A stretch of 64,000 nucleotides of DNA, from positions 320,001 to 384,000 of the forward strand of contig CAVUZH010000022.1 of assembly GCA_963745835.1 (NCBI GenBank). The letters are read 5' to 3'. The notes beneath the pieces are model-generated. The model searched no databases. It was not told where the DNA came from and was given only the letters and a program-made list of their open reading frames with translations. Shown here piece after piece: positions 3,552 to 52,676 of this stretch (the first letter of the stretch is position 1; every line of letters starts with the position of its first letter). A program made the translations under genes and the position numbers. Source of the stretch: an uncultured delta proteobacterium (GTDB lineage: Bacteria; Desulfobacterota; Binatia; UBA9968).

Positions 3552-3697
3552 CAACGTAGCCAAAAGCAAAGCCTGAGCCAGCAGATCTTCATGCACCCGA
3601 GGGCTGACGGTTATAAGATGCGCGCAGAAATCATTGACAGAAGTTACGATAGCGGAACCGACTTCGTGTCCCAATAGCGAGAATAAAGAAATCGACC

Positions 3698-19201: not shown

Positions 19202-20047
19202 TCACATACGGTCTTGAGAAGATCGGAGCCCTCTGAACACCCGCTCGTCTTGGTGGCAGACGATACAGGAAGCTTGCCCGCGCTCTTCCAAATTGGAGAC
19301 AAGCGCATACGTCAATCCATTGTCCGACCATGTGAGCACTTTCCAACCATTTACAGATTGAAAATGAAACCGCAGCCCTTCCCAAAGGATCTCTTCACCA
19401 CCTGATGGTCGCGCCACCGCATCCGAGGTCACCACCAAAGAGATCGGGTGACCCTTTAGGCGATAAACAATATAGGCTGCATAATCTTCCTTGAACCCGA
19501 CCAAACGTCCGCCTTCGACGTGGTAAGGCTTCGGTTCCGCCGCCTGCGGATAATCAGGCAGTTTCAAATTGAAGCCGAGCTTTCCGGCGAACCAGGTGGA
19601 AATCTTTTCAGGCGATTCGCTGAACACTTCTAGGGGTAACTGTCCCTTGAGGTACCGCACATGATTGTTGACGGCCATGGTAACAAACGAGCCGCGGTCT
19701 TCTTGGAGAGAGTTTGGCACAGCCAGCCAAAAAGCAGCGAACGCGAGCAGCAAAAGAGCGCAGGCCGCAATGATTGGCCGCGAACAAACAAATTTGGTTC
19801 GCCTGCCTGAGCTCTGCACCAGCTGGGCAACGTTTGCCTGCAATGATGCCGGAGCCGTATAAACCGGACGCGCGCTGCGTATCGCCGAAACCAACTCACG
19901 CTCGGCCTCCAAAGCGGCACGGCAGTCGGGGCAGCTCTTGATGTGTGTTTCCACAGCCAAGCGCTCGCCGTTCTGGAGCTCGTCGTCCAGATACAACGGG
20001 ATATGTTCTAGAATGTGATTATCCACTTCCACGCTTTCGCCGCACAA
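19202..20047 (-). CDS. membrane anti-sigma factor (zf-HC2) with C-terminal CxxCH
   Basis: HIKSCPDC zinc motif, one TM helix, periplasmic GGRL...LTYALVS, terminal CIVCH. Confidence 0.88.
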   Translation of the reverse strand: MCGESVEVDNHILEHIPLYLDDELQNGERLAVETHIKSCPDCRAALEAERELVSAIRSARPVYTAPASLQANVAQLVQSSGRRTKFVCSRPIIAACALLLLAFAAFWLAVPNSLQEDRGSFVTMAVNNHVRYLKGQLPLEVFSESPEKISTWFAGKLGFNLKLPDYPQAAEPKPYHVEGGRLVGFKEDYAAYIVYRLKGHPISLVVTSDAVARPSGGEEILWEGLRFHFQSVNGWKVLTWSDNGLTYALVSNLEERGQASCIVCHQDERVFRGLRSSQDRM

Positions 20048-20603
20048 CCATTAAGGCATTGGTTTTCTCAGCCAACATACTGCGAAGTTCCGCCCGCGCG
20101 CGATTCAAACGGGACATGACGGTTCCGGCGGGGCATCCCAAGATCGATGCGATTTGCCGGTAGCTGAATCCTTCGAAATAACGGAGCACCACGACTTCAC
20201 GAAACATTTCCGGCAAGCCTGAAATCGCCAGACGAATCTTTCCGGAGATCACGTTGCGCTCAAAATGATCCTCCGGGCGCTCTCGCTCATCGGACAACCA
20301 TGGTTGCAGCGGACCGCCGTCGATTCGATGTTTTCCCAGCAGAACAAACTCCGGCCCGTTGGCACGCCGGCGCCATTCATTGATCCAGATGTTGCGCAGA
20401 ATAGTAAAAAGCCACACTTTGGGATCGCTCTTAATGGCGGTGTGGGTCATTCCTTTGATGGCGCGGAGGCAGGCCTCTTGGACTAAGTCCTCGGCGTCCG
20501 TGCGATTGCTAGTCAAAGTCATGGCGAATCCGTAGAGCGCGCCAAGGTTTTCGAGAATAGCGTGCTCACCGTTGCCAGACGCTGTTTTCCGGAATCGGAT
20601 CAC
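20019..20603 (-). CDS. ECF RNA polymerase sigma factor
   Basis: DAEDLVQE, WLFTILRN, GFSYRQIASILGCPAGTVMSRLNRAR. Confidence 0.93.
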   Translation of the reverse strand: MIRFRKTASGNGEHAILENLGALYGFAMTLTSNRTDAEDLVQEACLRAIKGMTHTAIKSDPKVWLFTILRNIWINEWRRRANGPEFVLLGKHRIDGGPLQPWLSDERERPEDHFERNVISGKIRLAISGLPEMFREVVVLRYFEGFSYRQIASILGCPAGTVMSRLNRARAELRSMLAEKTNALMVVRRKRGSG

Positions 20604-20774
20604 AGCAGATACTCCTTGCCAGAGAATCCGTCGCCGACTTTTTTATTTCAACCCAATCACGCTGCTTAATTAAACCTCTCTCGTTTTCATGTCAATCACA
20701 AACCGCGACCCGCGCGAGAACGAAAATTAGGAGAACTGACGCTGGTAATCTATTTGCTCCCTACGGAAAACCCG

Positions 20775-20800
20775 GGAATAAATTTCCCCCTCGGTTGTCT
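20775..20800 (+). promoter_or_regulatory. putative ECF-type promoter (GGAATAAA...GTCT)
   Basis: GGAAT-N17-GTCT upstream of the operon divergent from the ECF sigma; inference. Confidence 0.45.
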
Positions 20801-20867
20801 TTATCTAATAGCAGCTCAAAACAGCTCTGGCCGTGAGATCGAAGCGCTCGATTGTGGGAGGCAAGCT

Positions 20868-21623
20868 ATGTCCCATCGCTGTGTATTTTCCTTCGCCTTT
20901 TCTAAGCGCGTGTGGCTCTCGCTCGCGCTTGCAGCGATCCCCCCTTCTGGCGCCTGGTCTTATGAAGAAATTAAGGTTGCCGACGGCGGCACGATCGAGG
21001 GAAAGGTCGTGTTCCGAGGCACCGTGCCGAGTCCCCGGAAGGTGATTCCGACGCAGGATCAAGAGGTTTGCGGCGGGCCAAGAGACGAGCCGCGGCTCGT
21101 TCTTGGATCCGATAACACCGTCCCGGGAGCCGTTGTTTTCTTGAAGGGAGTCGAGAAAGGCAAAGCGTTCGAAAAGCCCAAGAAGCCTCCGGTTGTTGAT
21201 AACGCGAAGTGCAAGTTCGAGCCTGAGATTCAGGTCGTCCCGGCCGGGACGGAAATCCTGATCCTCAACTCGGACCCCGTGCTCCATAACACCCATGGTT
21301 ATCTCTTGACCGATAGCCGCAGGGGACGCACGGTTTTCAATCAGGCGTTGCCGCAAAAGGGACAACAGGTAAAATCGACCCTCAAATCGCCGGGGGTAGT
21401 GGACGTCGCATGCGACGTCCACGGTTGGATGCAGGGCTGGATCGTGGTGGCGGACAACCCGTATTTCGCGGTGACCGAAAAAAACGGCACCTTTGCGATC
21501 AAAGACATCCCGCCGGGAAAATACACCTTGGCTACTTTTCAACCTTATGTCGGAGTCAGAGAAACGCCGGTTACCGTTGAGTCGAAGAAAACCAACAACA
21601 TCAACGTCGAGCTAAAAAAATAG
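20868..21623 (+). CDS. secreted cupredoxin-like / carboxypeptidase-regulatory-like domain protein
   Basis: Signal peptide; NSDPVLHN and CDVHGWM (type-1 Cu-like ligands); GTFAIKDIPPGKY. Confidence 0.8.
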   Translation: MSHRCVFSFAFSKRVWLSLALAAIPPSGAWSYEEIKVADGGTIEGKVVFRGTVPSPRKVIPTQDQEVCGGPRDEPRLVLGSDNTVPGAVVFLKGVEKGKAFEKPKKPPVVDNAKCKFEPEIQVVPAGTEILILNSDPVLHNTHGYLLTDSRRGRTVFNQALPQKGQQVKSTLKSPGVVDVACDVHGWMQGWIVVADNPYFAVTEKNGTFAIKDIPPGKYTLATFQPYVGVRETPVTVESKKTNNINVELKK

Positions 21624-21667: not shown

Positions 21668-22807
21668 ATGAGCGACTTTGACCGTGAACGGCGCGAGGCT
21701 CAACGTGAATTGCACAACCCTGATCGGAGGCCCGATCCATCTCTCAGTATAACGCGGCGAACTTTCCTTCATAAGTCGTTAGTAGCGGGAGCTGTAACCG
21801 GAGCGGCGACGTATGGATGGTTTCCGTTGATCAATACGCTGACTCTGGCTCATGGGGCGCAAGCCGCGTTTAGCTTTGCCTGGCTTTCCGATACACACCT
21901 CTACCCCAAGAACGTCAATACGCGCTTTGTCGAGAAAGCCGTACGGGCGGTGAAAGAAATCCAGGCCATGAAGCCGGCGGCGGATTTTCTTATGTTCGGT
22001 GGCGATCTGGCCCAACTTGCCGACCCTGTAGAGCTGCGCCTCGGCAACGACATTCTCAAGGAAATAACCATCAAAAAGCATTTTATTCCCGGCGAGCACG
22101 ATTGGTATCTGGACATGGGGAAAACCTGGAATAGTCTATTCGGCAATTCACCTTGGACCTTTGAACATAAAGGCGTCCAGTTCATAGGCCTGGATACAGT
22201 GAGTCGAGCGCCTGACTATTGGTCAGCGACCAAGATGACCCCGAAAGAGAGGATGGGTCACATGGCTGGGCTGGACGGAACAGTGGCTGGACCATGGGCC
22301 GGGGTAGGCGGCGACCAGCTGCAGTGGCTGAACAAAACGCTTTCGCCTTTACCCAAAGACAGAGCGATCGTAATTTTCAGTCATAATCCTCTCTACGAGT
22401 ACTATCCTCCATGGAATTTCTGGGTCCGTGATTGGCGCCAAGTTCATGAGGTTCTCAAGCCCTATACCAATGTCACGAATATCCACGGTCATACACATCA
22501 GGTCCTCTACAACGAAATCGGTACGATGAGATCGATCGGCATGCTAGCGACTTCATGGCCATGGCCCTATGCGCCGGAAGGAGTTCCCACGCTGACCAAG
22601 CCGATGATCCGAGTAAATCCCGGAGATCACTTTGACGGCGTCGGCTGGGGGAAAATTACCGTGAGCGCGGCGCCAAAGGTCGATTACGAATACATGATGT
22701 GGCGTAAAGCCGTTTATGCAGAAGCGGAAGTTGATTCGGGTACCGGCGACAACAACAACCAGAGATTGAGACCGCGGATCGCCGATCAAATGTGGCCTTA
22801 TAAATGA
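21668..22807 (+). CDS. Tat-exported calcineurin-like metallophosphoesterase
   Basis: TRRTFL twin-arginine motif; SDTH, GGDLAQ, PGEHD, SHNP, HGHTH. Confidence 0.88.
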   Translation: MSDFDRERREAQRELHNPDRRPDPSLSITRRTFLHKSLVAGAVTGAATYGWFPLINTLTLAHGAQAAFSFAWLSDTHLYPKNVNTRFVEKAVRAVKEIQAMKPAADFLMFGGDLAQLADPVELRLGNDILKEITIKKHFIPGEHDWYLDMGKTWNSLFGNSPWTFEHKGVQFIGLDTVSRAPDYWSATKMTPKERMGHMAGLDGTVAGPWAGVGGDQLQWLNKTLSPLPKDRAIVIFSHNPLYEYYPPWNFWVRDWRQVHEVLKPYTNVTNIHGHTHQVLYNEIGTMRSIGMLATSWPWPYAPEGVPTLTKPMIRVNPGDHFDGVGWGKITVSAAPKVDYEYMMWRKAVYAEAEVDSGTGDNNNQRLRPRIADQMWPYK

Positions 22808-22839: not shown

Positions 22840-23298
22840 ATGAGAAAGATTCTCCCGTGGCACGCTGGACTGCTTCTCATAGCAGTATTTCTTTTCGTTT
22901 TTGCTTCTCGAATGGATCATGTCCTGGCGCACAAGGAAAAACATACCCCGGAACAACTCAAAGCATTCTTTGACGTTTTCATGGAGCAGGTGCGGGTCGG
23001 GGATCTCTTGTTTCACGGCGATGGCGAGATGGAAAAAAAGCTCGGAACAAATTTATCTCGGACCGGTATGGCCTGCGCCATGTGTCACCCCTTTGCATCG
23101 GACACACACCCGCACGAATTTCCTAAGTTTGGGGAACAGACTCAGGAGTTCGCGACCTTGCGGGATATGATCAACTGGTGCATCGAGAATCCAAACGAGG
23201 GCGAAAGAATCGACGTCAACGGCCCTGCCATGAAAGCAATGGAAGCGTATATTTACTGGTCTAACAAAGGCTCAGTGTTGGATGCGGGGAAACACTAG
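22840..23298 (+). CDS. monoheme cytochrome c, SoxA/TsdA-like domain
   Basis: Signal peptide, CAMCH, TLRDMINWCIE...MKAMEAYI. Confidence 0.75.
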   Translation: MRKILPWHAGLLLIAVFLFVFASRMDHVLAHKEKHTPEQLKAFFDVFMEQVRVGDLLFHGDGEMEKKLGTNLSRTGMACAMCHPFASDTHPHEFPKFGEQTQEFATLRDMINWCIENPNEGERIDVNGPAMKAMEAYIYWSNKGSVLDAGKH

Positions 23299-23427: not shown

Positions 23428-23554
23428 TCGCAGTTTTCAGCTACTGGTTGACTAAATTGGTCTCTGGGAAAAGGGATAAGCCAAGGTGAGGGTGCATGCT
23501 GATCACACATAACCCGCTGATCAAAGTAGGGAAATATTGCAGGCAACATCTAAG

Positions 23555-24385
23555 ATGAATTCTCCGGATATTTCCCGAAGAAGTTTCTGCAGGTGGAGTT
23601 CTTCACTTGTGTTGGCGGGAATCTTTACAGGTCTGAAGAATCGGCTGGGGCTGGCGCTTGATCCGGAATCGCCGGACGGCATGCTGACGGATATGCATAC
23701 GCCCAGGCTGATTCTGCCGACTATGACACGAAATGGAAATCAAGTTCCTGTCGTCGTCAAGATGAACCATCCGATGGAATTGGGCCATTACATCCGACGA
23801 GTTGAGTTCCGTAACGAAACCGACCCGATTCCCTCCAAAGGGATTTTCCACCCCACCGCCGCTAATGGTGAGACCTACTTGGCTTTCCAAGCCCGAATGG
23901 ACAGCGGCACCTCGACAGTCCTCGCTATCGCCGAATGCAGTTTACACGGGACTTGGATCGCCCGCCGCCAGATTACGATTCCCGATGGGCAAGGCGGCTG
24001 CGCCACGGTCGGCGTGCCCAAAGACGCTGCGGCCACAGAAGAGATTGTCCCGCCCGTGATCAGGATTCCTGAATTGGTCCGCAGGAACCGCCTGACTAAA
24101 GGAGAAATGGCCGAGGTCCAGGTCCAATTCAAACACCCAAGCAAGACCGGTCTTGCTTATGATGATAAAAAATTCGTCCAGATCGAAGAGCCTTTCTACA
24201 TCACATCGATGCAGGTTCTGTACGGGGAGCGCTTGGTCAGCCGCTACGAAATGACCGCAGGTTTGAGCGACAATCCCTTTTTGAAGTTCAAGCTCAAGTT
24301 CACAGAAGAAAAACCCATTCGGGTTGTTTTTACCAACAGTAGGGGCCGGCAATTCAGCGCCAGCGCGCCGGTGGTTCTATCTTAA
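23555..24385 (+). CDS. fused SoxY-SoxZ-like sulfur carrier
   Basis: Tat motif SRRSF; SoxY-like half (NGNQVPV, RMDSGTSTVLAIA, GQGGC); SoxZ-like half (HPSKTGL, LSDNPFLKFKL). Confidence 0.75.
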   Translation: MNSPDISRRSFCRWSSSLVLAGIFTGLKNRLGLALDPESPDGMLTDMHTPRLILPTMTRNGNQVPVVVKMNHPMELGHYIRRVEFRNETDPIPSKGIFHPTAANGETYLAFQARMDSGTSTVLAIAECSLHGTWIARRQITIPDGQGGCATVGVPKDAAATEEIVPPVIRIPELVRRNRLTKGEMAEVQVQFKHPSKTGLAYDDKKFVQIEEPFYITSMQVLYGERLVSRYEMTAGLSDNPFLKFKLKFTEEKPIRVVFTNSRGRQFSASAPVVLS

Positions 24386-24390
24386 ACTTC

Positions 24391-25602
24391 ATGGGCCGGC
24401 TCTCGCTGACAGCGGCGGTTATCCTGATCGGCATACTTTGGAAGCTCGTCCCAGGAAAGACATTATCGGAGATGTTGGGATCGACAGGAGCGGACGGTGT
24501 TGTTGCGGGCAGCGCCGAACCGGCGGCCAGCTTTCATAACAAGCCGCTTCCAGCTGCCCAGTGCGGCTTTTGCCACCCCAGACACTATGACGAATGGCGC
24601 CGCTCATCTCACGCGAGCTCTCTGAGGTCCGATGATTTTGTCAGGACATTCTCGCAATATCTCGACTCGGTCGGCGAGCAGGCGCGAGAAGATTCGCAAT
24701 CATCCATGGCTTGTCTTTCGTGCCATGCCCCTCTTCTGAAACATGCCGAGCCGGGAATCGTTGGTCAGGTCGCCGGTTTTGTGCTGGCCCGGGAAACAGA
24801 AAAACTAGCCGGCTTCGAAGTTGGTTGTGTCGCTTGTCACGTTGCTGGAAACCGCGTCTTTGCCGGCCCGATCGAAAAGCCGCAGAACAATCCGTTCCAC
24901 CTTTCAAAATTTTCCCCGTCCTACAGAGAAGCGTCGTTTTGCGCCGATTGCCACACCTGGACTGCCTCTACGATTCCCTGCTCCAACGTCTACACGGACT
25001 GGAAGCTAAGCCGAGCGGCCAAAGCAGGGACAACCTGCCAGTCCTGCCACATGGCTGAGACCAGCGGCAGCGCCGCTGCCGGAGGACCCGAGAGAAAAAT
25101 ACACGACCATGGTTTTCCGGGCGCAGGTTCGGCCGCCATGCTGCAAAAAACAGTGGTGCTTGGTCTGAAAGCCAACTTTCCGAAGAATCGTCTCGAAGTG
25201 ACCGCCACGATCCGCAATCTTACTCCTCATCGGGTGCCCGATGGCTGACCGTGGAACAGCTACGCGGTCCTGGAGGTGACCGTAGCGGATGAAACCGGAT
25301 GGGAATTCGAGACCATAAAACGGACCTACGCCAATTTCGGCATCGATAAAAATGGCGAGAGTACTGGGATCGCTTGGAAGATTGTCAGGCAATCGCCGGA
25401 TTCAACGGCATTGAGAGCGGAGGAAGTTCGCATAGAAAAAATCAGTTTTAACGTCGAGCCGCGGGACGGCAAGCGATTCACGATCCAGGCGAGGATGCGT
25501 TACCAGTACGCGCCCGCGCCACAGGATGGCTCCCGTCAAGAGAGTGACGGCAGGCAAATGGCGCAGGCAACCTTAACGCTACCGGGCAAGCGCCCGTCTT
25601 AG
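24391..25602 (+). CDS. pentaheme cytochrome c, probable selenoprotein (Sec at TGA 25246-25248)
   Basis: Five CxxCH (CGFCH, CLSCH, CVACH, CADCH, CQSCH). ORF 25276-25602 is in the same frame with no other stop; readthrough gives HRVPDG-U-PW in 403 aa. Confidence 0.8.
25259..25286 (+). promoter_or_regulatory. putative bacterial SECIS hairpin
   Basis: GCTAC(GC)GGTC-CTGGAGGT-GACCGTAGC stem-loop starting 10 nt after the TGA, with a G-containing apical loop. Confidence 0.65.
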
Positions 25603-25620: not shown

Positions 25621-27027
25621 ATGGCAGATCACGTGATTGAAAACGGCAACGAGGTCATCAACCCAGAGCTGATCAAGGGTTGGCTGCTTTGGGGGTTCGT
25701 CTGGGTGCTTTTAGCGCCGACCCTCGGCGTTATCATCTCGACCAAGTTCACCTATCCCGAATTTTTGGAGGGAGTCCCGGCGCTGACGTTCGGCAGGTTA
25801 CGGCCGATTCACGTCAATGGCGTGATCTTCGGGACTTTTTCGACTCTCTTCATCGGGCTTTGCTACTACATTGTGCCCAAGCTGGCGCAGGTCCGGATCT
25901 ACAAAGAGGAATGGGGCTATCCCATGCTTTGGATCTGGAACCTGGCTCTGATCGCCGGCTTCGTCTCGCTCGCTCTGGGATACAATCAAGGCCTTGAAGC
26001 CGCCGAGTTTCCTCTTGTCATCGACATCATCATCTGGATTGCCTTGCTCGCCGTTACAGTCCAATTTCTCGTTACCGTGGCGCGGCGCAAGGAGCCGGGA
26101 CTTTACGTGAGCCTCTGGTATCTGATTGCCGCTCTGGTTTGGATGGATATCAACTGGCCGTTCGGCAACTTTATTATTCCGTACGCGATCCCCGGCATAA
26201 ACAATGCCGCGCTCCATGGTCTCTACATCCATTACATCGTGGGGCTCTGGATCACGCCCGCTGGCTATGTGCTGATCTATTATTTCCTGCCGGCAAGCGT
26301 TAGAAATCCGATCTACAGTCATAAGCTTTCGCTGATCGGCTTCTGGTCTCTCGCGCTCTTTTATCCATTCGTCGGCATTCATCACTATCTATTCAGTCCG
26401 ATCGCCGACTGGGCGGAGACGATTTCGATTATGATGAGCGTTTTGCTGATTTTGCCCGTGTGGACGGTGCTGCAAAATTTTTTCGGCACGATGATTGGGC
26501 GCTGGCAAGGCTTCGCCGGTAATCTCACCGCCAAATTCCTCATCACGGGCGCCCTCATGTACATTATCGGTTGTTTTCAAGGATCGACCGAGGCGCTGCA
26601 GGCCTTGCAGCGGCCCACCCATTTTACCGACTTCGTCATCGCGCACTCACACCTGACGATCTTCGGCACGTTCGTGCTTTGGGCTCTCGCAGGAGTCGTC
26701 TATGTCTGGCCGCGCGTGACCGGCCGCGAGCTCTATAGTTTCCGGATGGCCAACTGGGGCTATTGGCTGATCACCATGGGCATCTCCGCCATGGGTGTGA
26801 TTCTGACAGCACAAGGATTACAGCAAGGTTTCATGCTGATTGCCGGCGCAGAGTGGCTCGACTCGCTTGTCTCCATGCACCCCTTCTGGTGGTTCAGAAC
26901 GTTTTCGGGGATCTCCATGGACGTGGGTATGAGTCTTCTCCTGCTTAGCTTGTTGTGGGGACCGAAGTCGCCGGCGGCGGAATCATCTCTGGCACGCCAC
27001 CCGCAAACCGCGCCTGCGGCCGTTTAG
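25621..27027 (+). CDS. cbb3-like (C-family) heme-copper oxidase subunit I, divergent
   Basis: FGRLRPIHVNG, YIHYIVG, FYPFVGIHHY, IAHSHL: all six His ligands plus a helix-VII Tyr; PIYSHKLS. Confidence 0.85.
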   Translation: MADHVIENGNEVINPELIKGWLLWGFVWVLLAPTLGVIISTKFTYPEFLEGVPALTFGRLRPIHVNGVIFGTFSTLFIGLCYYIVPKLAQVRIYKEEWGYPMLWIWNLALIAGFVSLALGYNQGLEAAEFPLVIDIIIWIALLAVTVQFLVTVARRKEPGLYVSLWYLIAALVWMDINWPFGNFIIPYAIPGINNAALHGLYIHYIVGLWITPAGYVLIYYFLPASVRNPIYSHKLSLIGFWSLALFYPFVGIHHYLFSPIADWAETISIMMSVLLILPVWTVLQNFFGTMIGRWQGFAGNLTAKFLITGALMYIIGCFQGSTEALQALQRPTHFTDFVIAHSHLTIFGTFVLWALAGVVYVWPRVTGRELYSFRMANWGYWLITMGISAMGVILTAQGLQQGFMLIAGAEWLDSLVSMHPFWWFRTFSGISMDVGMSLLLLSLLWGPKSPAAESSLARHPQTAPAAV

Positions 27028-27040
27028 GAAAGAAAACAGA

Positions 27041-28696
27041 ATGCGATACGCAAAAACAGTAGCTGTCATTGCCGGCTTTGGCTTCATAACCCTGGCGCTT
27101 TTTGTCCAGGGACTTCTCCCCGCCCTGCTCCCGGAATCGCGCTCGGAGACAGTCTCACGGGCGGTCAGGACCCGTCTCACCGAGCTCAAATGGATCGAGT
27201 ACCCGGCTGAGAACTACACGGAGCTGGAGCAATTAGGAAGGCAAGTCTATATTCGAGAAGGCTGTTGGTATTGTCACTCTCAATATATCCGCCCGGTCAC
27301 CGGCGAAGATCAACGCTGGGGGCCGGTTTCCCAGGCGGGAGAATACGCCTTCGATGTGCCCCACCTGTTTAGCACCCGCAGGATCGGACCCGACCTCACT
27401 CGCGTCGGGCTGAAATACAGCGACCACTGGCATTTCGCCCATCACTGGAATCCGCGCTTGGTGGTGCCTGACTCGAACATGCCCTCTTTCCCTTGGCTGT
27501 ACGAGCAGATCACGGTCGGATTGGTGGAAAAAGATGGAAAGCTCGCCTTTAAAGACGATTCCGCGCTGCGCAAGATTTTTACCTTCAAAGAAGGAAGCGA
27601 AATCCAGATCCTGCCCAATATCGATGGGCTCGCTTTCGCTCGGGAGCGCGATGGAGTTCCGGTATTAAACTTCGATCCGTTGCCTGACCCGCCAAAGACA
27701 AAAACAATCACCATCGTCACGCCGACGCGAGAGGCGGAGGGATTGGTCGCTTATATTCAGAAGCTCGGCATGAATCGCGGCCAGTGGCGCGACCTCTTCG
27801 AACCTCAACGGGTTTTTGTCAGCCAGTTCTCCATTCCGGAGTCCCAGGACTGGATAGCTCACGGCAAGGAAGTTTACCTCCGGCGCTGCGTCGGTTGCCA
27901 TGGCGAGAAAGGAGACGGCAACGGTCCGGCAGCGACGTTTCTCAGTCCGCGACCACGCGACTTCAGGGACGCGGTCTTCAAATTTCGCATCACCCCGTCA
28001 GGCGCCCTGCCAACCGAAGGCGATCTTTACCGGACGATTACGCGCGGCATCCGCGGCACGGCGATGCCGCCCTGGCACGAGATTCCGGAAAAACAGCGCC
28101 TGGCGGTGATTCTATTTATCAAGACTTTCTCACCGGCCTGGAAAGACAAAAATTTGAAGGAAGCGCCGGTTAATCTTCCCGATCCTCCCGCGCCCAGCGA
28201 AGAGCTCATCGCTCAGGGCGAGAAACTTTATATCAACGAAGGAAAGTGCTGGAACTGCCATGGCGGTCCCGGGATAAAGGACAACCAACCGTTCAACTAT
28301 CCCTGGGGCCGGGGCCCATCGGCGCCGACTTTGAAAGACGATTGGGGCTTCCCCTTGCTCGCGAGCGATTTCACGACAGGAATATTTAAGTCGGGATCCG
28401 ACGTGACCGATATTTTTCGGACCATGAGCACGGGTCTGAACGGCGCAGCCATGCCGTCTTTCGCTACCAACCTGACCGATGAACAGCGCTGGGCCATCTC
28501 CTACTACGTGCTGAGCCTTTCCGCTTATCTCGATCCGCTGCATCAAAAGAAGCTCCAGATCCCGGAGCAGGTGAAGGCCGCGCTCGACGATCCGAATTTA
28601 AAGACGCCGACATGGCGAGCGGCGTTCGATCCGACAAAAGCGGAAACAGCGGTAGCCGGTGAAAGACCCAAGAACTATCTTAGGATCTCGGAATGA
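27041..28696 (+). CDS. CcoO-like subunit II fused to two extra cytochrome c domains
   Basis: GRQVYIREGCWYCHSQ, RRIGPDL, SNMPSFPWL, then CVGCH and CWNCH with distal AMP motifs. Confidence 0.88.
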   Translation: MRYAKTVAVIAGFGFITLALFVQGLLPALLPESRSETVSRAVRTRLTELKWIEYPAENYTELEQLGRQVYIREGCWYCHSQYIRPVTGEDQRWGPVSQAGEYAFDVPHLFSTRRIGPDLTRVGLKYSDHWHFAHHWNPRLVVPDSNMPSFPWLYEQITVGLVEKDGKLAFKDDSALRKIFTFKEGSEIQILPNIDGLAFARERDGVPVLNFDPLPDPPKTKTITIVTPTREAEGLVAYIQKLGMNRGQWRDLFEPQRVFVSQFSIPESQDWIAHGKEVYLRRCVGCHGEKGDGNGPAATFLSPRPRDFRDAVFKFRITPSGALPTEGDLYRTITRGIRGTAMPPWHEIPEKQRLAVILFIKTFSPAWKDKNLKEAPVNLPDPPAPSEELIAQGEKLYINEGKCWNCHGGPGIKDNQPFNYPWGRGPSAPTLKDDWGFPLLASDFTTGIFKSGSDVTDIFRTMSTGLNGAAMPSFATNLTDEQRWAISYYVLSLSAYLDPLHQKKLQIPEQVKAALDDPNLKTPTWRAAFDPTKAETAVAGERPKNYLRISE

Positions 28697-28771: not shown

Positions 28772-28927
28772 ATGCTCGAGCTAATCACGTTGATAGAATT
28801 CATTGTTGCCTTTCTGATGGGACTTGCGGCTTGCTGCTTTCTCTTCTGGGGAATTCTCGATGGCGCCTTCGACAATCTCGAAGATATCAAGCACCGGATT
28901 CTGGAGATTGAAAAAGATGAACCATGA
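28772..28927 (+). CDS. CcoS/FixS-like small maturation protein (not in ORF track)
   Basis: MLELITLIEFIVAFLMGLAACCFLFWGILDGAFDNLEDIKHRILEIEKDEP; FxW...G.FD..E pattern. Confidence 0.7.
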   Translation: MLELITLIEFIVAFLMGLAACCFLFWGILDGAFDNLEDIKHRILEIEKDEP

Positions 28928-29246
28928 ACATCGCAGCTCGGACGAGCTTGAACACTACGCCGGTGGCGAGATCCAGGCGCGCCACGGGATCGTCAACAGA
29001 TGGCTGCTGGGACTGTATGCCGTGCTCTTTCTCTGGTCGATTCACTACCTGATTGGGCCGTTCGATGGACTGCGGCCGACGTTTGAATTTTGGGGCTGGG
29101 GAGGGTTAGGGGCGGGATTATCCAGCAAGGGCGCAGAACAAGGAGTCGAAGGACTCCAAGTCATCGGTGTGATCGCCCTTTCGATCGTCATGATTTCGGT
29201 CGCCGGCTTCTTTATTTGGGTTGTGATTCTAGCGCGGAAGAAATAA
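28917..29246 (+). CDS. small two-TM protein resembling a CcoP N-terminal anchor, no heme motif
   Basis: GEIQARHGIVNRWLLGLYAVLFLWSIHY pattern; overlaps the ccoS-like stop. Confidence 0.55.
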   Translation: MNHEHRSSDELEHYAGGEIQARHGIVNRWLLGLYAVLFLWSIHYLIGPFDGLRPTFEFWGWGGLGAGLSSKGAEQGVEGLQVIGVIALSIVMISVAGFFIWVVILARKK

Positions 29247-29432: not shown

Positions 29433-30392
29433 TCAGATGCGGCCTTCAACCTTTTCAGCGCCGTCACTCAAGGCTCGTTTCGTTGATCGTTTGCGTCGTC
29501 CCTCACCGAGCAGGGCGTTGACCAGAATCAAAATCGCGATCGCATACGTGGTACTCCCCACCGCGAACATGACAATGCCGCCGCCGATTTGATCTTCCTG
29601 GGGCGTCAAACCCCACAGCCGCAGAGCCGTTTGGTAGTGCGGGTAGAGAACTTCGCTCGAAAGCGCGATGACACCGGCTAGGATCGTATCTTGAGTGGCG
29701 GCGAAAAAAAGATAGACGATCGACATTCCGTGTTGGATCGGTGCGGGGTGCGACGCAGGCTGAATCACCGGCCACCAGAATACCAGCGCGGTGAGAAAGA
29801 AAAGCACATGCTCGAGATCGTGGATCCACGGCACACGCAAAGCCGTGTCATAGAGAGCCGGATAATGCCAGGCCCACAGATTGATGACATAGAGGCCCCA
29901 AGCCACGGGCATCCAGCCTAAGATATCGCGTGCCCGGCGTATCGCCGAATGACGAGTCAGAAGATGGCCCGCCCGCAATCGCGAATTCCCACGCAGGCCC
30001 CACAACAGGACGGGAACCGGATTAGCCAGCAGGATAAATGGCGGCGCAACCATGATCAGTAGCTCGTGCTGCACCATATGGGCGATGAGCAAGTAAGAGG
30101 CAAGATCGTCGAGGGGCGACAACAGCGCGGCGCCGATGGCAAGCAAACCGATTTCATAAATAACCAGTTGAGAGAGGTTCGCCACTCCACCGATCTCTCT
30201 TAGGCGAAACCAGCCACGCATATAAAGCGCTGCAAAAATGGCCAAGACCGCAATAACATCCCAGCGCCAATGCCAATCGGTGAGCACCCTATTGCCATCG
30301 GCGATATGGGCGGGAGCCGGCGCGGTCCAGCCCATCAAAAAAAACGTTGCAATGAAAAAGACCGCCCAGTGGGTATCTTCTTGACTGGCCAT
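29433..30392 (-). CDS. ctaG: cytochrome c oxidase assembly factor CtaG (Caa3_CtaG type)
   Basis: SPLD, AHMVQHELL, WAWHYPALYD, HDLEH, FWWPVI, EDQIGGG. Confidence 0.85.
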   Translation of the reverse strand: MASQEDTHWAVFFIATFFLMGWTAPAPAHIADGNRVLTDWHWRWDVIAVLAIFAALYMRGWFRLREIGGVANLSQLVIYEIGLLAIGAALLSPLDDLASYLLIAHMVQHELLIMVAPPFILLANPVPVLLWGLRGNSRLRAGHLLTRHSAIRRARDILGWMPVAWGLYVINLWAWHYPALYDTALRVPWIHDLEHVLFFLTALVFWWPVIQPASHPAPIQHGMSIVYLFFAATQDTILAGVIALSSEVLYPHYQTALRLWGLTPQEDQIGGGIVMFAVGSTTYAIAILILVNALLGEGRRKRSTKRALSDGAEKVEGRI

Positions 30393-31915: not shown

Positions 31916-31994
31916 CCCTCATTTTTGCTTCGGCTCGCTTACTTGTGCGCGATAGCAATTCTGTCTATCTTTCATGTTTCGGAGCCGCGAACAC

Positions 31995-33077
31995 ATGAAG
32001 CCAGAGATCAGTACCCACGTTGAACCACATGCGCAATTTAACGGCCCGATCCGGCGAGCGGGAATCAATTGCAATCTTTGGTACATGATCGCGATGTCGT
32101 CGGAAATTCAACAACGACCAGTGCGGCGGGAGATTTGGAAACAGCCGGTCGTGCTCTTCAGAACTCGACAGGGCGAGATGCGCGCATTGGAAGATCGCTG
32201 CGCGCATCGTCTTGTGAGATTAAGCCGCGGACGAGTGAAAGACGACAAGATCGAGTGCGCCTATCATGGCTGGCAGTTCAACGGCGCCGGTCGCTGTGTG
32301 CATATTCCGCACCTGGGATCCAGAACGACTTTGCCAAACTCTACAGTTCGATCGTTTCCGGTAGTCGAAAAGCACGGTTTCGTCTGGATATTTCCGGGCA
32401 ACCCGGCATTGTCTGATATTACTGCCCCTATGGAAATGAACGAATGGGATGACCTCAACGAAATCTCCAGCTTTGTGACGTTGAGGACTCGATCTCATTT
32501 TTCCTACCTCATCGAAAACTTGATGGACATGTACCACGGCAGCTTACATGCGCAGTACCAGGTATGGATAGCCGAATCGCTTAAGGAAGTGGTTGAAGGC
32601 GAAAAACAGGTTTCGGCAACTTACCAAGCCACGACGTACTACGAGGTAAAAAATCTCGGCTCCATTCTCCAGCTGTTCATCCCCTCACTCCGAAAGCTTC
32701 ATTCGGTTCCTCTAACCGTCACCTATGAATATCCCAACTGGAAGTCGGCGCTTGGAGAGGACTTCAAGATCTACTGCCTCATTTGCCCGGTTAACGAACG
32801 TTCAACCAATGCTTACCTTATTCACTACACATCCCTGGCCAAGTTCAAAGGCTTGAATACTGCGCCGGTTGCCATTCGACGCCTTTTGAAGCGCGCTCTG
32901 AGCAATGTCGCTAAAAAATTGTTGGCGAATCTAGTTCGTCAGGACGTCATAATGATCGAGGACGAACAGGCAGCCTTCGACCAGGACCCGCTGCGCCAGC
33001 CATTTGAAGTCAACCGCGCCATCCGCCGCGTACAGGAACTAGTTCGGCGCCAGGCAACTGACCAACCGCTCAATTAG
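31995..33077 (+). CDS. Rieske non-heme iron oxygenase alpha subunit (possibly CruH-like)
   Basis: CAHR...CAYHGW Rieske motif; ENLMDMYHGSLH iron motif. Confidence 0.85.
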   Translation: MKPEISTHVEPHAQFNGPIRRAGINCNLWYMIAMSSEIQQRPVRREIWKQPVVLFRTRQGEMRALEDRCAHRLVRLSRGRVKDDKIECAYHGWQFNGAGRCVHIPHLGSRTTLPNSTVRSFPVVEKHGFVWIFPGNPALSDITAPMEMNEWDDLNEISSFVTLRTRSHFSYLIENLMDMYHGSLHAQYQVWIAESLKEVVEGEKQVSATYQATTYYEVKNLGSILQLFIPSLRKLHSVPLTVTYEYPNWKSALGEDFKIYCLICPVNERSTNAYLIHYTSLAKFKGLNTAPVAIRRLLKRALSNVAKKLLANLVRQDVIMIEDEQAAFDQDPLRQPFEVNRAIRRVQELVRRQATDQPLN

Positions 33078-33113
33078 CACATCGGCTGGGCGCGCTCTCA
33101 GGATTTCACACCG

Positions 33114-34628
33114 ATGCTTAGAAGCTTTTTGCGGTCGAAAATAAAAAGCAAACTTAGCGGTTATAGCATCGTCATCAACCAACCCGATCCGACTAAACCC
33201 CAATCCCTTCAGTCAGTCAAAAAGGTCGCTGTGGTGGGCGGTGGGCTGGCCGGGATCGGCGCGGCATCCCTTCTCGGAGAGCGAGGATTCCAAGTGACCT
33301 TGTTCGAGCGCAATCATTATCTCGGCGGCAAAGTCGGCTGCTGGAATGTTCCCTTCGAAGACGGCAACACTATCAAGGTCGACCATGGCTTCCACGCATT
33401 TTTCCGGCACTACTACAACTTACGATCGTTCTTGGAGAAGATCGGCGCAGCGGAACATTTGAAAACCATTGCCGACTACCTGGTTCTGGCCAAAGATCGA
33501 CGACATTTTAGTTTCAAGAACGTCGAGACAACGCCGGTACTGAACATCTTATCTCTGGGCAAGAATAAATTTTTCAGATTTCGCGAGGTATTGTTCAGCC
33601 CGCCAAGCTGGAGGATGGGCGAGTTCCTGGAATACGATGCAGCAAAAACTTTTGCCAAATATGACTCCAGCAGCTTCGCAGAATTCTCAAGGAAAGCGAG
33701 TTTACCGGAATCTCTGCAACTGATTTTTAATACATTTGCCAGAGCTTTCTTCGCCCCGGCCGACAAGCTGAGTACAGCCGAGTTGATGAAAAGTTTTCAT
33801 TTTTTCTACCTCAGCCACAATCATGGCCTGCTTTATGATTATTTCGACACCGACTATCAAGAGGCCTTGATCCAACCGGCAACCCGGTACCTAAATCAAC
33901 ACAATGTCTCCATCAAACTAAACCGAAGTGTGGAAGAAACACGGCGCGACAATGACAGGTTCATCGTCGAATCGGAATCGTTCGACTACCTGATTCTAGC
34001 CAGCGATGTGGTCGGAACAAAAAACATCTGCGCAAACTCTCCGTGGATCAAGACATCTTCGGAAAAGACCTACTCGGAATTGATCTCGTTGAAGGCTTCC
34101 GCCGGCTACGCCGTGTACAGGATGTGGTTAAACAAAAGAACCGGCGACGACTTACCGGTATTTATCATTACCGAGAAGCATGACATTCTGGACTCGGTTA
34201 CTTTCTACCATCAATTCGATAAAAGCTCGGCTGCGTGGGCGCAGGGTTCCGCCGGCGGCGTTTACGAGCTGCACTGTTATTCGCTACCCTCCGGCGCAGT
34301 TTCGGAAAACGATGTGAAGGCGGCTTTTGTGGCCGAACTCCATTTTTATTTCCCGGAGCTTCGCGATGCCAAAATAATCTACGATCATCTTCAAATCAGG
34401 CATGATTTTACCGCGTTCTATACAAACCTGAACAAGAGCAGACCCGAGTTCACAACCGCAATACCGAACTTCTATCTCGCGGGCGACTGGGTAAAGACGG
34501 GCACTCCGGCAATGCTGATGGAAGGAGCCTACACGTCCGGGATTATGTGCGCCAACGGCATTCTGACCAAGCACGGCCTCCAGGAGGAACCGGTACGATC
34601 GGTGCCGATCCGGGGAATCTTCGCTTAG
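33114..34628 (+). CDS. carotenoid desaturase/methyltransferase, CrtU-like FAD oxidoreductase
   Basis: VVGGGLAG, YLGGKV, DHGFHAFFRHYYNL, GGVYELHCY, LAGDWV...LMEGAYTSG; next to a lycopene cyclase. Confidence 0.75.
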   Translation: MLRSFLRSKIKSKLSGYSIVINQPDPTKPQSLQSVKKVAVVGGGLAGIGAASLLGERGFQVTLFERNHYLGGKVGCWNVPFEDGNTIKVDHGFHAFFRHYYNLRSFLEKIGAAEHLKTIADYLVLAKDRRHFSFKNVETTPVLNILSLGKNKFFRFREVLFSPPSWRMGEFLEYDAAKTFAKYDSSSFAEFSRKASLPESLQLIFNTFARAFFAPADKLSTAELMKSFHFFYLSHNHGLLYDYFDTDYQEALIQPATRYLNQHNVSIKLNRSVEETRRDNDRFIVESESFDYLILASDVVGTKNICANSPWIKTSSEKTYSELISLKASAGYAVYRMWLNKRTGDDLPVFIITEKHDILDSVTFYHQFDKSSAAWAQGSAGGVYELHCYSLPSGAVSENDVKAAFVAELHFYFPELRDAKIIYDHLQIRHDFTAFYTNLNKSRPEFTTAIPNFYLAGDWVKTGTPAMLMEGAYTSGIMCANGILTKHGLQEEPVRSVPIRGIFA

Positions 34629-34653
34629 AGCTTCAGCTAATCTCGGAACCTAA

Positions 34654-35328
34654 ATGTCACTAACCTATTTGCTATTAAATCTCTGCATCATCGCCGTACC
34701 CCTATGGTACACACCGGACAAGCGTACCGCCTATTATCGTCGGTTGCCGGCGCTGGGTTTTTCGATCGCCGTGGTGAGCACCTGCTATTTGCTGTGGGAT
34801 ATACTGGTTACCGCACGCGGCGAGTGGAGCTTCAACGGCAAATACTTGACCGGCGTGCAGATCCTCAACATTCCTCTCGAAGAAGTTCTGTTTTTTATCA
34901 CTGTTCCGTATAGCTGCTTATTCATCTATGAGGTGGTGCTGTATGCAACGAAAGGCAGCAAATTCAGACTGCCGGCGAGCGTTATCATCGCAATGATCCT
35001 CGCTCTACTCGCGTCGAGCCTCGCCTTCTATCCGCAAGGCTACACCAGCAAGGCATTGGCCTCCTGCGGTTTTTTTCTCATGATCGCACTCTTGCTCGAT
35101 CGGTCGCTTCTCGAAAGCAAACATTATTGGATGTGGCTGGCAATCTGTTATGTGCCCTTCCTAATCATCAATACGGTGCTGACGGCGCTTCCTGTGGTTG
35201 AGTACAACAGTAAGGCGATCTGGGGATTGCGCGTCGGCACGATTCCGCTGGAGGATTTCTTCTATAACTACGCGATGTTGTCCTTCTATCTGTTGGTTTA
35301 CCGGATCGGTAAGAAATTCATTCAGTAA
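34654..35328 (+). CDS. lycopene cyclase, CrtYcd-type (two fused domains)
   Basis: Duplicated IPLEE/IPLED motifs, WD, W.FN; membrane protein. Confidence 0.85.
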   Translation: MSLTYLLLNLCIIAVPLWYTPDKRTAYYRRLPALGFSIAVVSTCYLLWDILVTARGEWSFNGKYLTGVQILNIPLEEVLFFITVPYSCLFIYEVVLYATKGSKFRLPASVIIAMILALLASSLAFYPQGYTSKALASCGFFLMIALLLDRSLLESKHYWMWLAICYVPFLIINTVLTALPVVEYNSKAIWGLRVGTIPLEDFFYNYAMLSFYLLVYRIGKKFIQ

Positions 35329-49176: not shown

Positions 49177-49260
49177 TATTACTTAACTCCTTGACGGAAG
49201 CAGACGGGAGAGCTTCTGCTCGACCGCCAACATTCACGAAGTACAATAACAGGTAGAGTA

Positions 49261-52629: not shown

Positions 52630-52676
52630 CGTGTTGCTTCGCTCTCTCGTAGTTTGCTGAAAATTGCTTCAGGCTG

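Follow-up and report, generated by a model that had tools for sequence, protein, structure and literature searches.

A pentaheme cytochrome c gene of the MccSep family with a conserved in-frame TGA, located between a SoxYZ fusion and a cbb3-type oxidase

The closest described relative of the protein analyzed here is ExtKL of Geobacter sulfurreducens (GSU2937-2936), which has been renamed MccSep and crystallized (PDB 9wt8, 9wt9, 9wta-c) as a pentaheme selenocysteine (Sec) polysulfide reductase (Mihara et al., Sci Adv 2026, PMC13510729). According to that paper, the enzyme is a periplasmic homotetramer, polysulfide is the preferred substrate and selenite is reduced at lower efficiency; the mechanism comprises an attack on polysulfide (or selenite) that yields a Se-S-S(Cys) intermediate, which electrons supplied by the heme chain then resolve. 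The fold combines a helical heme domain with a C-terminal Ig-like domain, and both halves of the protein are needed for the active site. Polysulfide reduction is the sole activity demonstrated for the family, and the characterized member supports anaerobic sulfur respiration; reversibility of the Sec/His-Cys-heme site is raised by the authors only by analogy with TsdA and SoxAX (PMC13510729). In the family survey of the same paper, MccSep proteins are mostly aquatic and centered on Desulfobacterota and Nitrospirota.

The supplementary table of that paper (data S1/S2) covers 637 family members, nine of which contain the string PHRVPDGUPWNS; the rows examined are Binatia, one of them marked 'Sec (this study)' and assigned to clade 5. 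Our protein shares with these Binatia (UBA9968) homologs the identical PHRVPDGUPWNS and the same type of UGA plus 30-nt segment, and is about 80% identical to them (DASUTG01 row compared by eye; 79% for the match at the related locus L034). A 30-residue string of the query has zero occurrences in the data table, and the gene neighborhood of the Binatia homologs is not mentioned in the main text. Thus, the protein is a new member of an already known family in a gene context that is undescribed. The preliminary description of this locus as a "hidden" selenoprotein does not hold in this respect, because the family was characterized in 2026 and sequences of about 80% identity had already been tabulated as Sec proteins (PMC13510729).

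One reading frame across a conserved TGA

The window, i.e., the whole stretch of 64,000 nt that was analyzed, contains at 24391..25602 (plus strand) two open reading frames, 24391..25248 (285 aa) and 25276..25602 (108 aa, GTG start), which share a frame at an offset of 885 nt (3 x 295), as had been described; a single TGA is the only interruption. Reading this TGA (25246..25248, the sole recoded codon) as U gives a 403-residue product with a putative selenocysteine at U286 and a TAG stop at 25600-25602. Translation of 24391-25602 reproduces the reported context HRVPDG*PWNSYAVLEV; with U286 in place, the surroundings read LTPHRVPDGUPWNSYAVLEV. The frame encodes the following three parts: (i) an N-terminal hydrophobic segment (signal peptide or anchor) with a low-confidence linker (24391..24531; sequence MGRLSLTAAVILIGILWKLV...; pLDDT < 50 at residues 34-47); (ii) an alpha-helical pentaheme domain (24562..25050); and (iii) a C-terminal Ig-like beta-sandwich domain with the Sec loop (25153..25599), as assigned from the AF2 model and Foldseek. 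The five CxxCH motifs, which bear out the pentaheme description, lie at 24562-24576 (C58), 24712-24726 (C108), 24826-24840 (C146), 24940-24954 (C184) and 25036-25050 (C216), and all five are invariant both in a 72-sequence and in a 16-sequence alignment. In the AF2 model (pLDDT 87.8), the helical heme domain, with helices to about residue 252, is followed by a beta-sandwich of seven strands (255-262, 268-276, 290-300, 305-314, 346-353, 362-373 and 388-398), and U286 is placed in the loop that connects strands 268-276 and 290-300. Foldseek matches of this model are beta-sandwich domains and 5ze8.

The TGA is present at the same column in 6/6 loci of related genomes, and in 11/11 loci aligned over it by tblastn, some of these loci being one contig fetched twice. 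The homologs that keep it are 83% (G001, partial), 79% (G004), 71% (G008), 63% (G022), 37% (G066) and 28% (G017) identical to the query, and the 117 codons downstream of the TGA show 63-83% identity in relatives. Among the best 150 library matches besides the query, 19 end at the U286 column and 10 carry Cys at it; most of the other proteins in this set are of the GHxxPTG type, without that Cys and without an equivalent of C197 (see below). All homolog loci of the Sec type keep the TGA. The genome has the complete set of genes for Sec decoding that the preliminary description proposed to look for, i.e., selA (608.6 bits), selB (394.3 bits), selD (383.4 bits) and selC, the tRNA-Sec (74.2 bits), all above curated cut-offs in the genome search. 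The anticodon of the tRNA-Sec is TCA (ARAGORN), and selD is itself of the Sec type, with its own Sec in AAGUAAK.

These data bear on the possibility that the TGA is a true stop, which would leave a truncated 285-aa pentaheme cytochrome and a separate 108-aa protein initiated at GTG 25276. Gene callers yield exactly these two products, and the anticipated splitting by automated annotation is seen in the database, where some proteins stop precisely at query residue 284/285 and others begin at 296 (108-aa fragments). We consider a true stop extremely unlikely: the 27 nt from the TGA to the GTG encode the conserved in-frame PWNSYAVLE, the TGA persists at this column in homologs of as little as 28% identity, with Cys in its place in the 10 library homologs, the solved homolog is a single chain with an active site built from both halves, and the genome has Sec machinery. 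That the TGA arose by erroneous sequencing or assembly, or by a recent pseudogenizing mutation, is refuted for practical purposes, given that the same codon occurs in 8 aligned sequences of different assemblies, that DNA contigs from runs X1 and X7 extend across the TGA with no listed difference (two studies; one run may be the source sample), and that the frame downstream is intact and conserved. It should be noted that RNA contigs (X17, 24630-25105; X19, 24710-24884) fall in the N-terminal half only, none over the TGA, and may be the result of DNA carry-over.

A stem-loop that was reported to start 10 nt after the TGA is found at 25259 in the window, and the segment 25259-25288 folds as (((..((((((((...)).))))))))) with -11.9 kcal/mol. 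Relatives keep only the inner part, i.e., a 6-bp stem (GCGGUC/GACCGU) and an 8-nt loop (CUGGAGGU) at 25264..25283 (plus strand), 16-35 nt 3' of the UGA; the lower extension (25259-25262 with 25283-25286) is not conserved in orthologs and was therefore left out of the element. Within this SECIS-like core, 48/48 cells are paired in 8 sequences, and synonymous sites are frozen in 5/7 invariant codons at the hairpin versus 14/90 elsewhere (one-sided Fisher p = 0.003). Two-sided covariation was observed in 0/6 pairs of the core across the 8 sequences, the hairpin energy is unexceptional compared to shuffles (z = -0.5 to -1.8), and the hairpin sequence doubles as coding for the conserved peptide AVLEVT. 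The MFE fold computed for the 78 nt that follow the TGA is dominated by a rival hairpin, which begins at the UGA and has 50/56 cells paired in the alignment. By this comparison (48/48 vs. 50/56 cells), the downstream hairpin appears to be the better SECIS candidate, and it probably guides Sec decoding, the UGA-proximal hairpin being a possible alternative.

The reading of the locus as a 403-aa heme/Sec enzyme is supported by the single frame, the conserved TGA, a family match that spans the TGA and the Sec machinery. It is very probable that 24391..25602 is one gene, in which the UGA would be decoded as Sec by SelA, SelB, SelD and tRNA-Sec, and that the product is an exported pentaheme cytochrome c of the MccSep family. 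Insertion of Sec at U286 itself is predicted from the sequence.

Family membership and catalytic residues

The NCBIfam model NF040886, 'multiheme c-type cytochrome (seleno)protein ExtKL', matches residues 56-379 with E 1.3e-35, across the TGA. The score of 122.8 bits is below the 250-bit equivalog cut-off, suggesting a diverged clade that is no ExtKL equivalog; the relationship to ExtKL proposed in the preliminary description is thus retained at the level of the family and not at the level of the equivalog. The PDG-U-P context given there for Geobacter ExtKL is right, as the Geobacter peptide observed by mass spectrometry is ...HSIPDGUPTPNR (PMC13510729). In a PDB search with the single sequence, MccSep (9wt8/9wt9) was found at E 2-4e-7, with PDGC aligned to PDG(U/A)P and IPCSNVY to TQCCTSY. 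A profile built from 16 MccSep-type sequences matched 9wt8/9wt9 at E about 4e-51, compared to 1.8e-36 for 5ze8, the non-Sec cytochrome c552.

We compared the residues of the MccSep active site to the query. In both the pairwise and the profile alignments, U286 (HRVPDGUPW) falls at position 325 of 9wt8/9wt9, i.e., at the catalytic U325 of MccSep, and C197 (24979..24981, plus strand) falls at C239, the distal Cys ligand of catalytic heme 2. C197 is present in at least 90% of the MccSep-type alignment A3, and its equivalent is missing from the non-Sec GHxxPTG relatives. In the profile alignment to 9wt8, R85 (24643..24645, plus strand) lies opposite the substrate-site R83; this column is R or K in orthologs, and the match lies in a gapped region of the alignment and is of moderate confidence. 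K372 of MccSep aligns with I326, next to K325, a position that is variable among MccSep-type sequences.

Our protein has in common with MccSep the five CxxCH motifs, a UGA-encoded, putative Sec in an H-x-[IV]-P-D-G-U-P loop, by alignment a Cys at the position of the heme-2 ligand C239 and an Arg at that of R83, a helical heme domain followed by a C-terminal Ig-like domain (here in the AF2 model), and a gene that is split by gene callers. It differs in sequence (about 25% identity) and in length (403 aa compared to 450 aa in the solved construct).

Another relative, cytochrome c552 of Thermochromatium tepidum (5ze8), has the same two-domain fold (Foldseek E 6.5e-17, TM 0.62-0.65). It and the GHxxPTG family share with the query five hemes, a CQxCHM fifth motif and the conserved His-x-x-Pro ahead of the loop; however, these proteins have PTG-A-P, without Sec or Cys at the U286 column and without Cys at C197. 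Therefore, they are not expected to share the Sec/Cys-heme chemistry. Two class-level matches (L054 and L055) are non-Sec, c552-like proteins.

The operon and its counterparts in related genomes

The neighborhood is of the oxidase/SoxYZ kind, as initially described, with a SoxYZ fusion upstream and a CcoN-like gene downstream. The MccSep gene is separated by 6 nt from the former and by 18 nt from the latter, all on the plus strand. In the fusion (23537..24385; PF13501, PF08770), the stop codon of which is 6 nt ahead of the MccSep start, a Tat-like signal (SRRSFCRW) and a cysteine within an internal GQGGCATVG stretch are recognizable. Its TIGR04557 score is 90.6 bits (below the cut-off of 140), and no other SoxY domain was found in the genome. 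Three plus-strand genes precede it. The nearest encodes a monoheme SoxA/TsdA-like cytochrome c with a CAMCH motif (22840..23298; PF21342, E 3.9e-9), C114 of which aligns with the heme-ligating Cys of SoxA/TsdA in weak matches (1h31, E 2e-4; 4wq7, E 0.028). The next (21668..22807) encodes a calcineurin-like metallophosphoesterase of 379 aa (PF00149, E 1.7e-9), which has no PDB sequence match and is not SoxB by NCBIfam. The third (20754..21623) encodes an exported protein that ends in a CarboxypepD_reg-like domain and resembles amicyanin weakly over one stretch (E 1.5e-4, far below the cut-off). Divergent to these, on the minus strand (19202..20603), are an ECF sigma factor (20019-20603) and a zf-HC2 anti-sigma factor (19202-20047), syntenic in L034 and L035.

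Downstream, the CcoN-like subunit of a cbb3-type (C-family) heme-copper oxidase (25621..27027, plus strand; PF00115, E 5e-70) has cbb3 CcoN as its best PDB match (3mk7, E 1.8e-53, versus 4e-10 for NorB). Its TIGR00780 score of 216 bits is below the cut-off of 583, and TIGR00781 is also below its cut-off, which is indicative of a diverged cbb3-type member. The following genes encode a CcoO-like monoheme subunit fused to two CcoP-like cytochrome c domains (27041..28696, plus strand; PF02433, PF13442, PF00034), a conserved small hypothetical protein with hydrophobic segments (28824..29246, plus strand), for which no family was found in a Pfam/NCBIfam-type profile search and which has a similarly sized ORF at the equivalent position in L035, L036 and L039, and a CtaG-type oxidase assembly factor (29433..30392, minus strand; PF09678, E 6.6e-54), syntenic in the same three loci.

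The synteny is conserved. The SoxYZ fusion is directly upstream of the MccSep gene in 3/3 ortholog loci whose upstream flank is visible (L034, L035, L017), and CcoN is directly downstream in 5/5 ortholog loci (L034, L035, L036, L017, L039); the order in related loci with visible flanks is metallophosphoesterase, SoxA/TsdA-like cytochrome, SoxYZ fusion, MccSep and cbb3-type oxidase. In the genome G066, the 37%-identical Sec homolog is again close to a SoxYZ fusion, the gene of a YeeE/YedE sulfur transporter separating the two. Linkage to SoxYZ is not seen for all Sec homologs: the paralog type in G017 adjoins a gene of the cytochrome b561 family, in a genome where no SoxYZ fusion was matched. 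A metagenome scan with the G066 protein returned 14 loci, of which one lacks a heme motif and the other 13 encode non-Sec GHxxP[ST][GA] cytochromes; our own HMM detected no SoxYZ-like ORF in these 14 loci, which are uninformative on the MccSep-SoxYZ linkage.

Compared to the Sox system (SoxAX, SoxYZ, SoxB, SoxCD), the operon has a SoxY plus SoxZ carrier with a GGC cysteine, a SoxA/TsdA-type cytochrome and a metallophosphoesterase. Conversely, SoxY and SoxZ are fused here, whereas canonical SoxY is a separate protein with a C-terminal GGCGG arm; the carrier Cys is consequently internal rather than in such an arm. SoxCD and SoxX were not identified here, the Sox-specific NCBIfam models TIGR04488, TIGR04490 and TIGR04484 all score below their cut-offs in the operon, and neither SoxB nor a flavocytochrome c sulfide dehydrogenase was found in the genome (97.1% complete). 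SoxB is a member of the metallophosphoesterase superfamily; it is speculative to regard the metallophosphoesterase of the operon as a SoxB analog, shared superfamily membership being the supported part of this idea. The context also differs from that in Geobacter, where the genes belong to extHIJKL, with the rhodanese-like lipoprotein ExtH and the porin ExtI (abstract of the paper on ExtI). The query sequence is present in soil, rhizosphere and winery metagenomes, the soil habitat contrasting with the mostly aquatic one surveyed for the family (PMC13510729).

Possible roles of the protein

The MccSep catalytic set, i.e., U286, C197, H112 of the second CxxCH and R85, is kept by alignment, and from this we infer the same sulfane/polysulfide S-S chemistry for the 403-aa protein. 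The SoxYZ-fusion carrier, the SoxA/TsdA-like cytochrome and the cbb3-type oxidase are likely partners. The gene context hints at an oxygen-linked role in sulfane-sulfur metabolism rather than at anaerobic sulfur respiration; the substrate, the electron-flow direction and contacts of the protein with SoxYZ or the oxidase are deduced rather than observed. Our tentative proposal, which we regard as possible, is that in this lineage (Binatia) an MccSep protein was recruited into an aerobic Sox-like periplasmic module, where its Sec/Cys-heme site would oxidize carrier sulfur or trim carrier-bound polysulfane, with electrons passing to the cbb3-type oxidase. Sulfane sulfur would sit on the internal cysteine of the SoxYZ fusion, the SoxA/TsdA-type His/Cys cytochrome and the metallophosphoesterase would act as helpers, and the five hemes would pass electrons straight to the c-type domains of the oxidase next door.

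The protein could instead be a terminal polysulfide reductase of anaerobic sulfur respiration, as in Geobacter, its adjacency to the oxidase being the result of shared regulation or chance. This role would agree with the only activity demonstrated for the family (PMC13510729) and with the retention of the catalytic residues. We find it rather doubtful in view of the tight SoxYZ-MccSep-CcoN arrangement (6 and 18 nt), an order repeated in every ortholog locus whose flanks are visible, and of the soil, rhizosphere and winery metagenomes in which the sequence occurs. In addition, profile searches detected no quinol-dehydrogenase-type partner in the operon, whereas the paralog type in G017 has an adjacent cytochrome b.

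It is improbable that the protein is mainly a selenium enzyme, which would reduce selenite in the periplasm for detoxification or Se acquisition and for which sulfur compounds would not be the physiological substrate. MccSep does reduce selenite, although less efficiently than polysulfide, which the characterized enzyme prefers (PMC13510729). At least SelD and the MccSep-type enzyme require selenium in this organism, and regulation by an ECF sigma factor is in line with a stress response; however, the neighbors are of the sulfur type (SoxYZ and the SoxA/TsdA-like cytochrome, as well as YeeE/YedE in G066). A mere electron wire from a SoxA-like/SoxYZ reaction to the oxidase, with a vestigial Sec site, would be compatible with the five hemes and with the position of the gene directly upstream of the oxidase, and is highly improbable, since the costly UGA/Sec, the heme-ligating Cys and R85 are kept in 63-83%-identical orthologs and beyond, and vestigial Sec sites are normally lost or replaced.

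For annotation, the locus is another selenoenzyme cut in two by gene callers, which is easily corrected now that both a model and a structure exist for the family. For the family, the catalytic core known from anaerobic respiration is found here in a tight, conserved operon with a sulfur carrier and a high-affinity oxygen reductase. Recruitment into an aerobic Sox-like module, if true, would amount to a Sec-dependent sulfur:oxygen oxidoreductase pathway in which no canonical SoxB was found, and would physiologically reverse the only activity known for the family. Should the operon function as a unit, it would point to selenium-dependent sulfur oxidation or detoxification in aerated soils and would provide a natural test of the reversibility of the Sec/His-Cys-heme site.

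One frame across a conserved in-frame TGA

The gene at 24391-25602 (plus strand), which encodes a homolog of MccSep (formerly ExtKL), is one frame with a conserved UGA, set in a conserved operon of a genome with selenocysteine (Sec) machinery; its product has, by alignment, the catalytic set of the family, and a two-domain fold. Two plus-strand ORFs, 24391..25248 (285 aa) and 25276..25602 (108 aa, GTG start), share this frame, and their 885-nt offset and the TGA context match exactly the wording of the preliminary description. Translation with the TGA read as Sec (U) yields a single 403-residue product, in which the sole recoded codon (25246-25248) is U286, in the context LTPHRVPDGUPWNSYAVLEV, and which contains five CxxCH motifs, starting at C58, C108, C146, C184 and C216.

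When 41 related genomes were searched in six frames, homologs interrupted by a single in-frame TGA were found in G004 (79% identity), G008 (71%), G022 (63%), G001 (83%, partial) and G017 (28%); any match at all occurred in 21 of the 41, a tally that takes in weaker relatives of non-Sec type and an unpublished genome, G012, on which none of the conclusions depends. The TGA column is identical in 6/6 loci, H-R-[VI]-P-D-G-*-[PL]-W, and the same in all 11 loci aligned over the column by tblastn in named public contigs, several of these loci being one contig reached twice. Among 301 genomes of the class, six have a match at E <= 1e-20: four are Sec-type (the window's own genome G000, G008, G017 and G066) and two are non-Sec and c552-like. 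Two further DNA runs, each of a different study, also have contigs that span the TGA with no listed difference; one of these runs could be the source sample. Therefore, a sequencing error, which the preliminary description had considered, or a recent pseudogenisation is ruled out for practical purposes by the TGA kept in relatives and in the contigs of other runs.

The machinery sought on the suggestion of the same description, selA, selB, selD and tRNA-Sec, is all present in the genome (97.1% complete, 9.33% contamination). The genes selA (608.6 bits), selB (394.3 bits) and selD (383.4 bits) are mutually adjacent at G000:C22:65479-70161 (loci L009, L001 and L010), on the contig of the window and ~250 kb upstream of it, and tRNA-Sec was found by Rfam (74.2 bits) and by ARAGORN (anticodon TCA). 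The selD gene carries its own in-frame TGA (AAGUAAK, within SVKAAGUAAKLGP) and is itself a selenoprotein gene, so the organism already depends on UGA-Sec decoding. Sec would be inserted at U286.

A candidate SECIS hairpin, family membership and fold

The stem-loop that the preliminary description placed 10 nt past the TGA corresponds to a hairpin at 25259-25288 (-11.9 kcal/mol). In eight aligned sequences only its inner part is conserved, a 6-bp stem with an 8-nt loop, CUGGAGGU, at 25264-25283, with 48/48 stem cells paired; one-sided changes in two stem pairs (G-U to G-C, C-G to U-G) occur in the 28%-identical paralog, and two-sided pair changes were found in none of the eight. Folding energies are ordinary (z -0.5 to -1.8), and a rival hairpin taking in the UGA itself is paired in 50/56 cells. 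Because the stem also encodes the conserved AVLEVT, we examined synonymous sites in seven close orthologs: among amino-acid-invariant codons, 5 of 7 in the hairpin show no synonymous change, compared to 14 of 90 across the 197 codons that flank it (p = 0.003 in a one-sided Fisher test, which overstates the freezing because the sequences are related). The two varying hairpin codons fall within the loop and immediately beyond the stem. Other clades tabulated in PMC13510729 have the same core, GGUCCUGGAnGUG, in their UGA+30-nt strings. A SECIS-like element downstream of the UGA is likely rather than proven.

ExtKL (GSU2937-2936) of Geobacter sulfurreducens was renamed MccSep by Mihara et al. (Sci Adv 2026, PMC13510729), who describe a periplasmic homotetrameric pentaheme selenoprotein, which reduces polysulfide and, less well, selenite, is required for S0 respiration, and owes part of its activity to R83 and K372. 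Residues 56-379 of the window protein match NF040886, 'multiheme c-type cytochrome (seleno)protein ExtKL', across the TGA (NCBIfam, E 1.3e-35), with a score of 122.8 bits, below the 250-bit equivalog cut-off; Pfam gives generic multiheme domains and nothing more specific. In a PDB sequence search, MccSep chains matched at E 2-4e-7, with U286 aligned to position 325 and C197 to C239. A profile of 16 MccSep-type sequences matched MccSep at E ~4e-51, against 1.8e-36 for cytochrome c552 of T. tepidum (5ze8), which lacks Sec, and aligned R85 to R83; K372 falls on I326, adjacent to K325, in a variable stretch. In the AlphaFold2 model (pLDDT 87.8, 72-sequence alignment), the N-terminal domain is helical and the C-terminal one is a sandwich of seven strands, two of which are joined by the loop that carries U286. 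The top Foldseek match, in a library to April 2026 without the MccSep entries, is 5ze8 (E 6.5e-17, TM 0.62-0.65).

An exhaustive HMMER search gave 1764 matches, the best 150 of which were aligned. At the column that is TGA in the Sec-type loci, 10 of the 150 have Cys, 19 terminate, representing Sec genes cut by gene callers, and two are C-terminal fragments beginning past it; most others are GHxxPTG-x-P proteins lacking both that Cys and an equivalent of C197. Thus, the Sec/Cys site and the heme-ligand Cys go together in this alignment, and the window protein has both. Two MccSep-type library proteins, P0020 and P0024, retain the region of the heme-ligand Cys (PCCT) and have Glu at the Sec/Cys column (H-A/S-L-P-N-G-E-P), where the chemistry may be different. 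A 153-aa library fragment, P0012, 57% identical to the window protein, reads VPHRVPDGCPWNSYA, and therefore a Cys-type variant may exist within the close Binatia group; this reading could also have arisen in the source, as an artefact of translation. Separately, the heme domain of 24391-25602 weakly matches C-terminal positions 408-510 (of 519) of NF041198, 'UshA-like (seleno)protein', a family in which a cytochrome region is apparently fused to an enzyme of metallophosphoesterase type.

The preliminary interpretation, a 403-aa five-heme Sec protein of ExtKL type that annotation would split, thus stood in full, including the PDG-U-P context, which is present in the measured Geobacter peptide VEMTNHAGHSIPDGUPTPNR (PMC13510729), except for its implied undiscovered status. 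The family is characterised, and a 2026 review (PMC13188914) counts ExtKL/NF040886 as one of the prokaryotic selenoprotein families. In the table of PMC13510729, nine sequences have the identical motif PHRVPDGUPWNS; the rows inspected belong to Binatia (order UBA9968), and one carries the label 'Sec (this study)' and clade 5. The table lacks a 30-residue string taken from the window protein, so the protein is a new member of a known, catalogued clade.

The operon and its conservation

The plus-strand run begins, next to a divergent minus-strand pair of ECF sigma factor and zf-HC2 anti-sigma genes (19202-20603), with an exported CarboxypepD_reg-like protein, followed by a calcineurin-type metallophosphoesterase (21668-22807), here a stand-alone protein. 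Next is a monoheme cytochrome of SoxA/TsdA-like type (152 aa); its C114 aligns, with weak E-values, to the heme-ligating Cys of SoxA (1h31) and TsdA (4wq7). In the oxidase/SoxYZ context named by the preliminary description, a SoxY-SoxZ fusion (Tat signal, internal GQGGC cysteine) lies directly before the MccSep gene, its stop 6 nt from the MccSep ATG, and a CcoN-like gene directly after, starting 18 nt past the MccSep TAG. The best PDB match of the latter is cbb3 CcoN (E 1.8e-53), with NorB reaching no better than 4e-10. There follow a CcoO-like subunit that carries two fused cytochrome c domains, a small protein (28824-29246) that has two hydrophobic segments and matches no family, and finally, on the minus strand, a CtaG assembly factor. 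All family-specific NCBIfam scores of these neighbours are below cut-offs, so they are diverged family members.

SoxYZ is directly upstream in 3/3 ortholog loci with upstream flank (L034, L035, L017), and CcoN directly downstream in 5/5 (L034, L035, L036, L017, L039). ORFs sized like 28824-29246 occupy the same post-oxidase position in L035, L036 and L039, and the product is possibly a small oxidase subunit. At L035 (6696-9782), the CcoN-like and CcoO/diheme genes form one 1029-aa open frame, which would represent either a naturally occurring fusion that joins subunits I and II of the oxidase with cytochrome c domains, or an assembly frameshift. The G066 homolog (37% identical) is Sec-type of a different subtype, PDT-U-PW (GHRIPDT-U-PW, Thr before Sec); after it come a gene for a YeeE/YedE sulfur-transport protein and then a SoxYZ fusion with the architecture of that in the window (L056, G066:C36, 5796-9143, minus); library proteins P0017, P0048, P0053 and P0139 end after the same PDT. 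Only three of the 301 genomes, G000, G008 (a contig fragment) and G066, gave a SoxYZ-fusion match without a break, and each of the three also has a Sec-type MccSep homolog; the many other SoxYZ matches resemble normal side-by-side soxY and soxZ genes. The G017 paralog type is preceded by a cytochrome b561-family gene, and that genome gave no SoxYZ-fusion match.

The genes in the rest of the window are housekeeping and unrelated. Downstream of an MFS transporter, Rieske-domain, flavin amine-oxidase/phytoene-desaturase-like and lycopene cyclase-domain proteins in a row (31974-35328) look like a carotenoid-type cluster. On the minus strand, a LigD primase-polymerase domain protein and Ku (2526-3674 and 5316-6170), with a MerR-TPR regulator between them, form a bacterial non-homologous end-joining pair, and a GlgE-type maltosyltransferase, a TreS/maltokinase-like fusion (1122 aa) and a branching-enzyme-like protein (47272-54782) represent the GlgE alpha-glucan pathway.

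Habitat and possible role

The MccSep gene sequence was found in 16 runs from five studies, at no less than half of the sampled words per run; the runs are labelled rhizosphere, soil and winery metagenomes, except two unlabelled runs, both of study P2, and contigs confirm two of the 16. The two Binatia motif rows with an inspected habitat are Terrestrial; the MccSep family is, according to PMC13510729, mostly aquatic. In the main text of that paper, SoxY, operons, synteny and genomic context all go unmentioned, and as far as our searches show the operon context is undescribed in the literature covered.

As proposed for MccSep (PMC13510729), the selenolate would attack an S-S bond of polysulfide or a sulfane species, the intermediate would be shared with C197 on heme 2, and electrons would travel via the five hemes; its authors regard the mechanism as possibly related to the reverse of the TsdA/SoxAX reaction. 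An oxidative reading of the window protein is possible but less likely than not, and a Geobacter-like reductive role is slightly less probable still; selenite handling, electron wiring and unknowns share the remaining probability. The genome contains no detected SoxB, flavocytochrome c sulfide dehydrogenase domain or SoxY domain other than that of the fusion. An oxygen-linked role in the operon is plausible because MccSep is tightly coupled there to a SoxYZ-type carrier, to another putative His/Cys heme protein and to a terminal oxidase, because the operon has no quinol-dehydrogenase partner, and because the habitat is soil; MccSep could then oxidise carrier-bound or free sulfane sulfur, or trim polysulfane on the carrier.
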